Assembly (NCBI RefSeq): GCF_036971445.1
Contig: NC_091478.1
Coordinates: forward strand, 85,312,001 to 85,376,000
Reading direction: 5' to 3'
From: Narcine bancroftii
Taxonomy: Eukaryota
Length of the DNA stretch: 64,000 bases
Below the pieces are notes generated by a model. The model did not search any database, was not told where the DNA came from, and worked only from the letters and a program-made list of their open reading frames with translations. The position numbers and the translations under genes are program-made. Positions 49,778 through 61,176 of the stretch are shown piece after piece (positions within the stretch are counted from its first letter, which is position 1; each line of letters opens with the position of its first letter).

Positions 49778-50340
49778 CGCCGTCCACCACAGAACAGCGC
49801 TCGCCCTATTCCCACTTCAGACGCCGTGGCTGATTGGTCATTGGCAGCCGGAGCGTCCACGCTCCAAGCCACCGCCTCATTGGGGGGAGGGGGAGGAGGA
49901 CGTCAACGCCAGCGCGTGACCAGAGGGGCAAGGCTCCTGTGTTTCCGGTTCCGGTTGGAGGTGGCGGAGAGCGAGATCCAGGAGGTTAGTCACGGTTTGA
50001 TTTTAATTCTTTGGAGTTTTTAAAGCTCGCTCCGATGGAATGGAGTCGGATTCGCTCCGTCCGCAACCGTCTGGCGTCTGGATTGATTTCGAAGTTCGTT
50101 GCTCGTGGTTTCCGCTGCTCGACTTTTTCTTCCCTTTGTTACTTTACATGGCGGCGCGGCCTAGACACGGAGGTGGCGGGTTCACTCTCGGGCCTCGTTG
50201 GATCAGGCGGGGCCTGGATTTCTTAGTTTCCCTCTTCATCTTTCTCCGTCCAGCGTTATCAGTTGTTTCGTTAGGGCCTATGATTCTCCATGGAGAATCC
50301 TCGCAGACCCGTTCTCAGCCGAGGCGAGTGGTTGCGTTGT
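49778..50340. promoter_or_regulatory. Bidirectional CpG-island promoter shared by CNEP1R1 (-) and the NCOA5-like gene (+)
   Basis: CpG-rich. ATTGG (CCAAT) at 49833, 49840 and 49879; GACGTCA 49899-49905; tandem ETS-like TTCCGGTTCCGG 49943-49954; YY1-like ACATGGCGGC near 50146; plus-strand donor GAG|GTTAGT at 49985. Confidence 0.75.
49940..49984 (+). other. Putative non-coding first exon of the NCOA5-like gene (5' end approximate)
   Basis: Strong donor GAG|GTTAGT just downstream of the ETS motifs in the CpG island; the first coding exon at 53779 has an acceptor and needs an upstream exon. Confidence 0.5.
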
Positions 50341-51960
50341 GAGATAGCAGATTCCAGCTTATTTATTGGTTCTTTTTTAAATTTATCACGAAACATATTG
50401 TGTTTAAAAATATTGTTTTTAAACGTTTATTGTAGTAGCATAAATACAAGAAAAAAAAACGATTTCCCAAATGCGGGACTTCAGTTTGGAATACTTCAAA
50501 TATTGTGTTTTACAACCATGACATTTACAAACATTGAAACAAAATTGGTTGGATTTGCAGCAGGTCGATCTGATTTCTATGCTGGATATTTATGTTTAAC
50601 TATCCTTTCTGTTAGAATCTGAATCACTCTCTGATCTCTGTTTTTTAAAAAAAGTCAAAAACCAAATCTTAAAGGCATTCAGAGTGGTTGAGAAAGTTAT
50701 CTTGCTTACTTTAAAAAAAAACATACGTTTTGATGGTTCTGTTGCACAATTTCAGCAGCTTCATTCTTGGAAGCCTTAAAATTGTGTTGCTGGATAAAAT
50801 TTCATAATTACTATTGTATACAAAGTAGTGCTAGTGTTTCAGTTTGTTGGCTTTTCACTGTGAAAGAAAATTTTAAAGCTAATTTTTCTTGCTATCACAA
50901 TGTAGGGTGCATTACAGACCAAAAAGAACACAGCCATTCAGCTGGAGTTAACTTGAAACACTTGATTTTCTTTCAGATTCTGCCTGACTTGAGTAGCTTC
51001 AACATTTTTCAATTTTTATTTCTGATTTCCTGTATAATTTGCATTTGCTTTTAAAGAGTTCTGCCCGATGGTCTTGGTAGTCTTGTGGTTTGGATTTGAT
51101 GGAGGGTATGGTTGGATATTTCCTTCCTTGCTCTAAAGGTGCATAGGTAAAAAGGAATCATTTGGAAGAGTGCATGTACTGTCAAGAGCTCAGTGTGCAT
51201 TGATGCCTTTCAAAGAATCTAAATTATAATGTGGACAGTGTTTTGGATCTATTTTGTAGCTGTTTTTAATGGATGCATTTCTTCAGTTTAATAACAACTG
51301 AATGTGTGTCTATGTATGTTTACATTCATGTAATGTAGCTACATGTGGTGTGGGTATAGAATGCAGGCAAAATAGAATGAATATGCAGCAAGTTCTCTAA
51401 AAGATGGTTTAGAATTGAACTCTGGTTTACTGTATTTAAAAAGCAGATATAAATGCAATGTCCTTCTGCATTCTGCTTTCAGTTTCTCCCCTGCCCCCTA
51501 AATTATCCTCTTGTCTCATAAATGTCCAGAGGCATCCATAATATGGATGAAGTTACTTTTGAACAATTAAAACACAGGAGGTCATTTGATCCAACAGCCT
51601 GTGTTGGCTGATAGGGAAGCGATCACATTAGTCCCATTCCATCTTTCATTTCCTAGTATCTTGATTTTATTTCCCATATGTGCCCATCAGTATCCCTTTG
51701 ATTCCTTGATCCTACCATGATCTTATGATTTATTCAATTAATTAATTGAGGTCAATTAAACCACCAGCACATCTTTGGAATGTGATCGGAAACTCGTAAC
51801 CCCATGTAGAGAACCTGCAAATTCTGTGTTGACTTGACTCAAGATACGGATTAAACCCTGGTTCATTGATCTGTGTGCCATGTTGCCATCATGATGTATA
51901 ATTTTTAAAACTTGAAATGAAACATCACTAATTGAATCTGCAGCAAATTTTATTTTGCAA

Positions 51961-52396
51961 CTCTATCATGGAAGCACCCTCTATCGATCATGGAAGCACC
52001 CTCTATCGATCATGGAAGCACCCTCTATCGATCATGGAAGCACCCTCTATCGATCATGGAAGCACCCTCTATCGATCATGGAAGCACCCTCTATCGATCA
52101 TGGAAGCACCCTCTATCGATCATGGAAGCACCCTCTATCGATCATGGAAGCACCCTCTATCGATCATGGAAGCACCCTCTATCGATCATGGAAGCACCCT
52201 CTATCGATCATGGAAGCACCCTCTATCGATCATGGAAGCACCCTCTATCGATCATGGAAGCACCCTCTATCGATCATGGAAGCACCCTCTATCGATCATG
52301 GAAGCACCCTCTATCGATCATGGAAGCACCCTCTATCGATCATGGAAGCACCCTCTATCGATCATGGAAGCACCCTCTATCGATCATGGAAGCACC
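51961..52396. repeat. Perfect 22-bp minisatellite (CTCTATCGATCATGGAAGCACC) x19 plus one partial unit
   Basis: Units start at 51979, 52001 ... 52375 with no visible mismatch; first unit 51961-51978 lacks 4 nt; no spacers. Confidence 0.97.
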
Positions 52397-59360: not shown

Positions 59361-59490
59361 CAGAAAACTGCAGACCTGATGATGGTCGCCGAGAAGAACT
59401 TTATCAGCAATTCTATAAAGAACTAGAGGATGACTACAATAAAGAAAAGCATGCTGATTGTGTTGTTATAGCCCTAAGCAAGCAACAAGG
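59361..59490 (+). CDS. NCOA5-like gene, coding exon (130 nt)
   Basis: AENCRPDDGRREELYQQFYKELEDDYNKEKHADCVVIALSKQQ(G) resembles NCOA5 RREELYRQYFEEIQRRFDAERPVDCSVIVVNKQ; CAG acceptor, GTAACT donor. Confidence 0.88.
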
Positions 59491-60976
59491 GTAACTTTTA
59501 TTTATTGACTTTTGTTTGTTGAATAAAGGGCATGTATCATTCATTTCATGCTTGAGATTGCAAATTGCTGAACCACTTGGTGTCAGAATTGACTGACAAG
59601 TGTCATATGATTTATTGGAAAGAATAAATAAAGGGTTTTAACATTTCCAGATTATGTGCTTTAGTCATTTCTTTTGGGAACATTAGAACCAAAGATGTCA
59701 TTTGGGAAGTTAAAACCATTGATGTCTTTTGTTTCTATCTTCTAAGTTATAAAATAAAACAAAGCTCTATCATAATGGCTCTTCATTTCTTTCCCTTCTA
59801 CCTCAAATGATTTGATTTGAAATTCTCAGATGGATAGAAAGAGAGTTCTAATCTCTCATTAACGTGACCATTATTCATGTCTGATCTGGACAAGTTGGAT
59901 AGTGGGATGGCATTGTGTTAGCTTGTAAAGAGTTATAACCATAGACTTTGATATTTTCCAGATTGTCTGTTTTGTTTTTCCTTAGACCTTGGGTACCAAA
60001 CAAAAGTAGGAAGCCAAGCCAATTTTCTGTTCTTACCACAATCTTAGTTGAGGTCATTGATCACACAAATGTTTTCAGTTCTTAAGCTAGTTGTTCTTCC
60101 CTAGAAAATGTTTCTTATGAAATTTCAAATCTAATGATTGGCATTCTGCAATTAAATCCTCTGAAGAAACTTTGTTAAATTTGTTAGGAAGTAATTTTGT
60201 GCAGTCTTTTGTAATGCATATAATTACCAGAAAAATAAAATAATAATGCAAGTAAGGCCAATTTTCTCTAAAAGCAAAACTTTTAAATGTTGATGATGCT
60301 GGGTGAATAAATGTAAGGTGGTTAGTTTTGCAATCCGATTTTGAATAGCCAATTTTTCTGTGCAGCTACAAAAATGTACAGAGAGACACATTTATTGATT
60401 TTAATGTAATTTTCTTTAGGGTAAGCTGATATTTTTAGTACCTGATAGCAGACAAAAAAAATGAGTGCAATATTTTTATAAATACTCTTGTCACATTACC
60501 ATTTATGAAAAATGGAGGACTATATAACAAATTAGTTAAAATATCTATTTGGATTTTAAAAGTTGGATGTGTGATTAATTTTTTTTAAATAAAGCTAACA
60601 AAACATGGGCATTATTCATTTCACAATAGACTTGTCTTGATTTGACTAAAATACCAAAATTTGTTTGCATCTGATATCTTTGAGACAGTTACTTTGTTGG
60701 GAAAAACTTCAACAATTCTAGGCTTGAAAGTAGAAACTAAATCTTGTGCTTTATAGGCATTTTACTTTTGTTGAACCAAGATAATATCCCAATACCCATT
60801 TTAGTCATTGTATTCGATCATAAGTTAAAATGCTAATACCTGATTATGTGTATTTTCTTTTCCATTGTTTATTTTGTATATAATGTTTGGGATAATTGTT
60901 GTAGATGTATATTGAATACAATTGATACATTAGTTTGACTTGTTAATCAGAATATATTGATTTGTTTCATTTTAAG

Positions 60977-61176
60977 AGATTATGCCAAACTAATAGGACG
61001 ACGAGTGCAAGAACTGGGACTTCTTGTGGATTTGGTGTACCTGAAATTAGAGCTGGCTCTAGATACTGCCCTGAAAGATGTTCGTGAAGAAGGTTCTCCG
61101 TTTTGTGTCGTTGTTGGGGGAGAACATCAGTCTCTTTCATCATGCACCGTAATTATTTTATATGCTGGCCACAAAG
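60977..61176 (+). CDS. NCOA5-like gene, coding exon (200 nt), anticodon-binding-like domain
   Basis: DYAKLIGRRVQELGLLVDLVYLKLELALDTALKDVREEGSPFCVVVGGEHQSLSSCTVIILYAGHK resembles NCOA5 DYAESVGRKVRDLGMVVDLIFL...GSPFAIVITQQHQIHRSCTVNIMFG. The gene continues past the window. Confidence 0.9.

Follow-up and report, generated by a model that had tools for sequence, protein, structure and literature searches.

Structure of the NCOA5-like gene

We analyzed a stretch of 64,000 nucleotides from the ray Narcine bancroftii (RefSeq assembly GCF_036971445.1, contig NC_091478.1, forward-strand positions 85,312,001 to 85,376,000). We call this whole stretch the window, and coordinates are counted from its first letter. 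The plus strand of the window carries the first exons of a gene related to nuclear receptor coactivator 5 (NCOA5), which is head-to-head with CNEP1R1. The gene is real and spliced, and it is almost certainly a second NCOA5-family gene (a paralogue) and not the orthologue of NCOA5. We will refer to it as NCOA5-like. It is already in RefSeq for N. bancroftii, and members from other organisms carry automatic or placeholder names. It belongs to a known family and is annotated but has gone unstudied, and the tail of its protein is a new lead that can be tested.

The original prediction was that four in-phase coding exons lie here, and these exons are found at the predicted positions (53779..53843, 56386..56462, 59361..59490, and 60977..61176). 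They have AG/GT ends, they join in phase, and together they encode 155 amino acids with no stop codons. We compared the letters of the window with the RefSeq "nuclear receptor coactivator 5-like" proteins from N. bancroftii (isoforms X1–X3). Each of the four exons is 100% identical to isoform X2 (P0005, 383 amino acids). A protein search gave 7 matches, all from cartilaginous fishes (83–100% identity).

As evidence for splicing, we compared positions 52450–62700 with the contigs of four runs from one study, which we presume to be RNA. The GT..AG joints 53843>54251, 54298>56386, and 56462>59361 were each found in all four runs. The joint 59490>60977 was found in three runs, and the fourth run has loose ends with identical letters. 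The predicted junctions 56462/59361 and 59490/60977 are therefore borne out. The predicted junction 53843/56386 holds for RefSeq isoform X3 (P0087), which makes this joint directly, but the contigs of all four runs insert an exon that the prediction had overlooked (54251..54298; 48 nucleotides, symmetric, coding, and in phase). Among the 15 of 45 contig joints that were listed, none was the direct joint. After 61176, a loose contig end in all four runs continues into the next exon of P0005, which is beyond the window. The rest of the gene lies there as well: P0005 continues with a helical hairpin that includes an LxxLL motif and then a tail with LLPTP motifs. We rejected a pseudogene reading of the gene.

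The exon at 53779..53843 contains a start codon (ATG at 53785) whose methionine is invariant in the 20 rows of our alignment A1. In RefSeq isoforms X1–X3, the coding region begins farther upstream, with an in-frame ATG at 50040; the donor that follows is at 50094, and the added stretch is 18 codons long (50040..50093). This stretch is absent from the skate, stingray, and shark proteins that we saw. A non-coding first exon at 49940..49984, with a GT donor at 49985, is a candidate that was proposed from the DNA letters. Of the other exons on the plus strand, 56386..56462 encodes part of a tyrosine-rich and acidic region that is predicted to be disordered, 59361..59490 encodes the first helix and the first strand of the folded core, and 60977..61176 encodes the bulk of a domain with the anticodon-binding fold. 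The acceptor at 59361 is a tandem site: the reads and isoforms X1 and X3 use 59361, and isoform X2 lacks one residue, as would be expected from an acceptor at 59364.

Several repeats were noted in and around the gene. The first intron contains a perfect tandem array (51965–52398; 22-bp unit, 19.7 copies, 100% matches), which is either very young or an artefact of assembly. Two related elements of ~340 bp (54859–55196 and 61665–61999; 82% identity over 233 nucleotides) resemble miniature inverted-repeat transposable elements. They have terminal inverted repeats of 50–55 nucleotides, and very many contigs map to them. A further inverted-repeat element lies at 58843–59032 (80-nucleotide arms, 78% complementary). 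Also, the NCOA5-like proteins of sharks and elephant shark (P0008, P0009, and P0010) have an additional N-terminal segment with a stretch of Arg-Asp-Arg-Ser-Pro that resembles NCOA5. With tblastn, we found no match to this segment at the expected place in Narcine (54299–56385).

Paralogy, age, and distribution

To place the ray gene, we built a tree from 55 rows: 25 NCOA5-like proteins, 20 NCOA5 proteins, 4 from cyclostomes, and 6 from invertebrates. We kept 199 columns of the core. The rows were hand-picked from several hundred matches by their names and by pairs within species, and the clade labels were fixed before the tree was built. The searches had given 82 matches, 273 matches (of which the best 150 were listed and 20 were looked up), and 597 matches for a query with ray NCOA5 (of which the best 120 were listed). 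The tree groups all 25 NCOA5-like rows in a single clade (support 100/99) and all 20 true NCOA5 rows in a separate one (96/96). All vertebrate rows are separated from the invertebrates, including amphioxus, with support of 100/98; the outgroup did not fall as one side of a branch in the tree. Forcing the seven NCOA5-like rows from sharks and rays into NCOA5 was rejected by the approximately unbiased (AU) test (p = 3.6e-78).

Other comparisons agree with the tree. Core identity between the ray protein and the 20 NCOA5 rows is 40–44%. The C-terminal boxes of NCOA5 (QELQ.KI and NFDNP) are in 20/20 NCOA5 rows versus 0/25 NCOA5-like rows, although the pattern that we used failed to pick up the variant boxes of insects and hagfish. 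Given the separate clade, the AU test, and the lack of these boxes, we rejected the identification of the ray gene as an NCOA5 orthologue. The prediction that this is a second gene of the family, outside the NCOA5 orthologues in a tree with amphioxus, is upheld; the other part of that prediction, an origin by whole-genome duplication, is likely only.

Both copies are present in 14 species of the set, with core identities between the copies of 31–46%. Because there are two clades, because vertebrates are separated from invertebrates, and because 14 species have both copies, the tree places the duplication on the vertebrate stem, later than the separation of vertebrates from amphioxus and earlier than the divergence of sharks and bony fishes. 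In amphioxus, we saw one cluster of 22 isoforms among the matches that were looked up. The copies do not seem to be related by retroposition. The NCOA5 models P0286, P0182, and P0054 have insertions or read-through at both of the core junctions, which suggests that the two intron positions in the core are common to NCOA5 and NCOA5-like. Since the ray gene has introns and these positions appear to be shared, we rejected a retrocopy.

A duplication on the vertebrate stem makes it likely that the two genes are ohnologues, and we think that whole-genome duplication in early vertebrates is the probable origin. Either the first round (1R) or the second round (2R) would fit. In all 12 pairs for which both lengths were given, the two copies are on records of different length (some of these are scaffolds, perhaps of different assemblies), which is an indirect sign that they are on different chromosomes. 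In human, 16q12 and 20q13 share other ohnologue pairs, such as SALL1/SALL4 and MMP2/MMP9. A segmental duplication on the vertebrate stem would also give two clades, and the tree itself cannot separate the two origins, a point made for two-copy families in PMC13450315, which also states that such trees do not distinguish 1R from 2R unless synteny is added. We consider a segmental origin improbable, as the timing matches the genome duplications and the copies are on different records.

The cyclostomes bear on which round was involved. In the free tree, three cyclostome rows group with NCOA5-like (88/83; 98/79 for the nearest), which hints at 1R. This placement is unsure. These rows have long branches, and a duplication in jawed vertebrates only is not rejected by the AU test (p = 0.107). 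Also, the hagfish row that is nearest to the NCOA5-like clade (98/79) has a tail of the NCOA5 type. As a separate observation, the family has at least three divergent proteins in hagfishes and one in lamprey (P0150, P0166, P0163, and P0161), which bear on 1R but are long-branched.

The original prediction was that the paralogue was lost in mammals. This did not hold: 19 of the 82 matches are mammalian. They come from 13 species, namely platypus, echidna, three marsupials, seven carnivorans, and Peromyscus. Further cats, marsupials, and voles were found within clusters; in one cluster with 29 members, the 15 listed members are all cats. The seven mammalian rows in the tree nest within the NCOA5-like clade (100/93), and open reading frames of ~380–470 amino acids with the whole core are found in monotremes, marsupials, carnivorans, and a vole. 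These sequences indicate that NCOA5-like is present from sharks to many mammals, so we rejected its loss in all mammals.

What speaks for such a loss is that the named matches that were listed include none from primates, mouse, or rat, that most of the records from mammals are predicted models, and that the placental copies are divergent. Core identity to alligator is 59–68% for placentals versus 77–79% for marsupials and monotremes, and the placental branches are longer (0.22 for the stem and 0.32 for vole). Judging from these sequences, the placental copies evolve faster. With long open reading frames nested in the clade and a cluster of cats, we view a mammal-wide loss as very improbable. 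No bird copy was among the named matches listed either; because many matches are nameless and the matches were listed in part, such absences are not proof of loss. The HGNC name NCOA5LP may denote a human pseudogene at 16q12. Should the loss affect just primates and a small number of other lineages, then it could be dated, and it would lie next to a locus that is well known.

There is next to no chance that the gene is the ray's sole NCOA5, evolving quickly and relocated beside CNEP1R1: no Narcine NCOA5 is named among the best 120 of 597 matches, but the AU test rejects this grouping, five other cartilaginous fishes carry both copies, and the ray Mobula has a true NCOA5.

RefSeq's "NCOA5-like," Si:ch211-216l23.2, and LOC100145527 from Xenopus are the same gene, and the reedfish, coelacanth, and Xenopus members are in the NCOA5-like clade. 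The reedfish and coelacanth members are the ones named Si:ch211-216l23.2, much as had been guessed (an uncharacterized si: or LOC gene in fish or birds). Several other members of the paralogue, from elephant shark, bichir, platypus, and echidna, are labeled simply as NCOA5. Because several fish and monotreme records with this label are the paralogue, comparative or knockout work can hit the wrong gene or overlook the second copy.

The gene was also predicted to be poorly characterized, and this agrees with the literature that we searched. We found no publication on the paralogue in the main texts of Creative Commons-licensed PMC articles and bioRxiv; the pair may be listed in subscription papers, in bioRxiv supplements, or in the online ohnologue database. 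In the same literature, the only match to the phrase "nuclear receptor coactivator 5-like" concerns corals. The NCOA5 pair had no match in one supplementary file each of PMC13450315 and PMC10195156, and the main text of PMC2864566 does not contain NCOA5.

The neighborhood of the gene

CNEP1R1 (TMEM188) occupies 42714..49777 on the minus strand. It starts with an ATG at 49777 or 49774, and its coding parts are at 48427–48498, 47021–47092, 43407–43514, and near 42800. All three of the CNEP1R1 exons that we tested match the Pfam family Tmemb_18A (PF09771; E = 4.8e-9, 5.3e-5, and 3.7e-11), and a search of PDB sequences with one exon gave no match. The start codon is 163 bases away from the proposed first exon of NCOA5-like, so the head-to-head arrangement is as it was first described. 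Downstream of CNEP1R1, also on the minus strand, is a HEAT-repeat gene (25446..32021, two exons located). Pfam's HEAT matches 25446–25670 and does not match 31788–32021, and a PDB sequence search with one exon gave only matches with E of 0.13 or weaker. From the gene order, this gene is likely to be HEATR3. The order ZNF423, CNEP1R1, HEATR3 is given for cattle in a table of PMC13244917.

The region between the two divergent genes (49778..50160, with no strand assigned) is CpG-rich and lacks a TATA box, and it is likely to be a bidirectional promoter. The observed/expected ratio of CpG across 49701–50300 is 0.93. Three CCAAT boxes lie in this region, as do two of the eight CCGGAA sites in the window, tandem ETS cores (49943–49954), a half-site of the cAMP response element, and a YY1-like site at 50148. 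The tandem CCGGAA site alone is weak, as it is present in 8 of 100 shuffles. Overall, the sequence makes it likely that CNEP1R1 and NCOA5-like share a promoter.

The first intron of CNEP1R1 (48608–49681) is low in complexity and rich in C, it is interrupted by three gaps in the assembly, and its transcribed strand is G-rich. Elsewhere in the window, four open stretches (2836–3846, 10258–10860, 33393–33773, and 37036–37416) resemble fragments of the reverse transcriptase of long interspersed nuclear elements (LINEs) or of retrotransposon integrases. A scan of the window with Rfam gave no matches.

The folded core, the tail, and possible functions

The AlphaFold model of the ray protein (20 sequences) is confident for residues ~85–290 and has low confidence elsewhere. 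The mean predicted local distance difference test (pLDDT) is 63, the predicted template modeling score is 0.41, and pLDDT is below 50 for residues 1–84. Residues 103–230 match the structure of human NCOA5 (PDB 1v95), with a Foldseek E value of 1.2e-10 and a root-mean-square deviation (rmsd) of 1.5. VIA gives Z = 18.3 and an rmsd of 3.5 over 125 residues. The translation of exon 60977..61176 by itself matches 1v95 with E = 1.7e-15, so the core of NCOA5 was correctly recognized in the exon peptides. The whole protein matches Pfam's HGTP_anticodon with 22.9 bits, as compared to a cut-off of 21; single exons matched no Pfam families (0 in 3/3), so the whole protein is required. Both sequence and model thus indicate that the core, which has the anticodon-binding fold, is homologous to human NCOA5. 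The fold of the helical part (residues 197–297) is a tentative prediction.

NCOA5-like lacks some parts of NCOA5. The RNA recognition motif (RRM; RRM_1 in Pfam) was found in none of the 12 NCOA5-like proteins that we tested, in 3 of 7 NCOA5 proteins (including shark NCOA5), and in 3 of 3 invertebrate proteins. An LxxLL motif at residues 253–257 is shared more broadly: it is in 23/25 NCOA5-like, 14/20 NCOA5, 2/4 cyclostome, and 4/6 invertebrate rows. As a side observation, some models of shark and ray NCOA5 (P0142, P0295, P0296, and P0298) and of NCOA5-like from Xenopus (P0135) have a foreign C-terminal domain. Several of these models match PF13472, and the domain is possibly a transposon-derived alternative last exon.

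The tail of NCOA5-like has short repeated motifs. LLP[TA]P is in 22 of the 25 NCOA5-like rows, with up to five copies, and in none of the 30 other rows; LLGxxP is likewise repeated, up to four times. These counts are over related rows, which are not independent. In Narcine, the tail has two copies of LLPTP, as compared to 0.003 expected, and none of 2,000 shuffles had as many; rows with a single copy reach only p = 0.009–0.02. The motif persists from sharks to marsupials although its flanks barely align. The tail has low confidence in the AlphaFold model, and LLPTP lies in a region that is predicted to be disordered. In 14 of the 20 rows of alignment A1, the first motif is followed by T-P-x-R/K, which is the consensus for phosphorylation by cyclin-dependent kinases (CDKs). 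A search of the ESM Atlas with the tail gave no usable match.

SETD2 offers an analogy. In a report on this protein (10.1101/2021.05.22.445248), the two leucines of LLPTP insert into RRM2 of hnRNP L/LL, at the back of the domain, in a mode like that of RAVER1 with PTB. Because LLPTP is the motif by which SETD2 docks on hnRNP L RRM2, we propose that NCOA5-like is an adaptor in splicing, and this predicted role is the best mechanism that we can offer. The folded core would attach to the transcription complexes used by NCOA5. The disordered tail, with its LLPTP and LLGxxP motifs, would contact hnRNP L/LL, and possibly PTB, at the back of RRM2, and so would tether splicing regulators to transcription complexes. 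The protein would be nuclear, and CDKs might provide a phospho-switch at the first tail motif. The whole chain, from a spliced paralogue that likely arose in an early whole-genome duplication to a nuclear adaptor that joins transcription complexes to splicing regulators, is a tentative proposal with prospects that are not quite even. That the tail binds hnRNP L is itself plausible by analogy, yet somewhat doubtful.

Several observations speak against the adaptor role. The LxxLL motif is in a confidently folded helix (pLDDT ~90), and because it is within a folded helix and is present in invertebrates as well, it may be structural. Loss of the RRM is not unique to the paralogue, as it is also missing in 4 of 7 NCOA5 models, including both of the mammalian ones. 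LLPTP is missing in three of the 25 NCOA5-like rows: vole, a sucker fish, and a whale-shark isoform with another C-terminus. LLPTP is also found in MYC proteins, where it is a phospho-degron. The flanks of the motif in NCOA5-like differ from those in SETD2. In the SETD2 report, residues that flank the leucine pair matter, a short SETD2 peptide binds at only ~12 uM, and the SETD2 peptide does not bind PTB (10.1101/2021.05.22.445248).

Alternatively, with the gene and its origin unchanged, the protein might be mainly a coregulator of nuclear receptors, or a competitor of NCOA5, that acts through its core and LxxLL; the tail would then be a phospho-regulated or proline-rich docking region. The retention of LxxLL in nearly all NCOA5-like rows and the frequent T-P-x-R/K would fit with this. 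Also, NCOA5 itself is described in PMC5746116 as having LxxLL and corepressor motifs and as both coactivating and corepressing the receptors ER, NR1D2, and LXR. But the location of LxxLL within a folded helix, its presence in invertebrates, and the lack of the strict motif in 6 of the 20 true NCOA5 rows all argue against it, and the repetition of LLPTP and LLGxxP would be left unexplained. We think that a coregulator is unlikely on balance, yet a serious competitor to the adaptor.

Or, the domain with the anticodon-binding fold might bind structured RNA, such as a tRNA-like stem-loop, or act as a scaffold, on the model of class IIa synthetases, GCN2, or the accessory subunit of polymerase gamma. 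The protein would then take part in RNA metabolism independently of receptors. The 20 VIA rows that follow 1v95 (Z = 11.6–16.4) are synthetases for His-, Thr-, Pro-, and Gly-tRNA, GCN2, and chains of polymerase gamma, and invertebrate and shark NCOA5 proteins have an RRM. However, these matches have just 10–22% identity, and a common fold does not prove a function. Moreover, there is no catalytic synthetase domain, and NCOA5-like lacks the RRM. We consider this explanation quite improbable. We rejected the idea that the protein is an aminoacyl-tRNA synthetase, as the matches are confined to residues 103–230, the remainder of the protein is helical or disordered in the model, and there is no catalytic class II domain.

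Returning to the adaptor, we can speculate further about its history. An ancient NCOA5 ohnologue might have exchanged the RRM and the ends typical of NCOA5 for a multivalent LLPTP/LLGxxP tail that CDKs can switch, become a dedicated bridge between nuclear-receptor complexes and hnRNP L/PTB in most jawed vertebrates, and then decayed in some placental lineages, including human. This scenario is rather unlikely, but if it is true, then work in human and mouse has overlooked an arm of co-transcriptional splicing control. The tail also offers a direct and inexpensive test of whether LLPTP is a general docking code for hnRNP L beyond SETD2.

It is useful to compare NCOA5-like to three known systems. 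First, the anticodon-binding domain of class IIa aminoacyl-tRNA synthetases (PF03129) is similar in fold, with Z of up to 16.4 and an rmsd of 1.5 across 95 residues, and the match to the Pfam family is marginal. Identity is just 10–22%, and the paralogue has no catalytic domain.

Second, the SHI motif of SETD2, which binds RRM2 of hnRNP L/LL, and the PRI consensus of RAVER1, which binds RRM2 of PTB, share with the tail of the paralogue a leucine pair in LLPTP (or LLGxxP) within a disordered region. The flanks differ, the motif is repeated in the paralogue, and binding by the paralogue is predicted from the likeness of the motif.

Third, NCOA5 (also known as CIA or KIAA1637) and its invertebrate orthologues (of the type of Drosophila's Neosin) are like the ray protein in having an acidic helix, a domain with the anticodon-binding fold, a long helix, and an LxxLL hairpin. 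NCOA5 has the same fold and apparently the same two intron positions in the core. In contrast, the paralogue is in a separate clade and at a separate locus, without the RRM or the C-terminal boxes. The paralogue's N-terminus is tyrosine-rich and acidic, while the N-terminus of NCOA5 is rich in arginine and aspartate, and only the paralogue has the LLPTP/LLGxxP tail.

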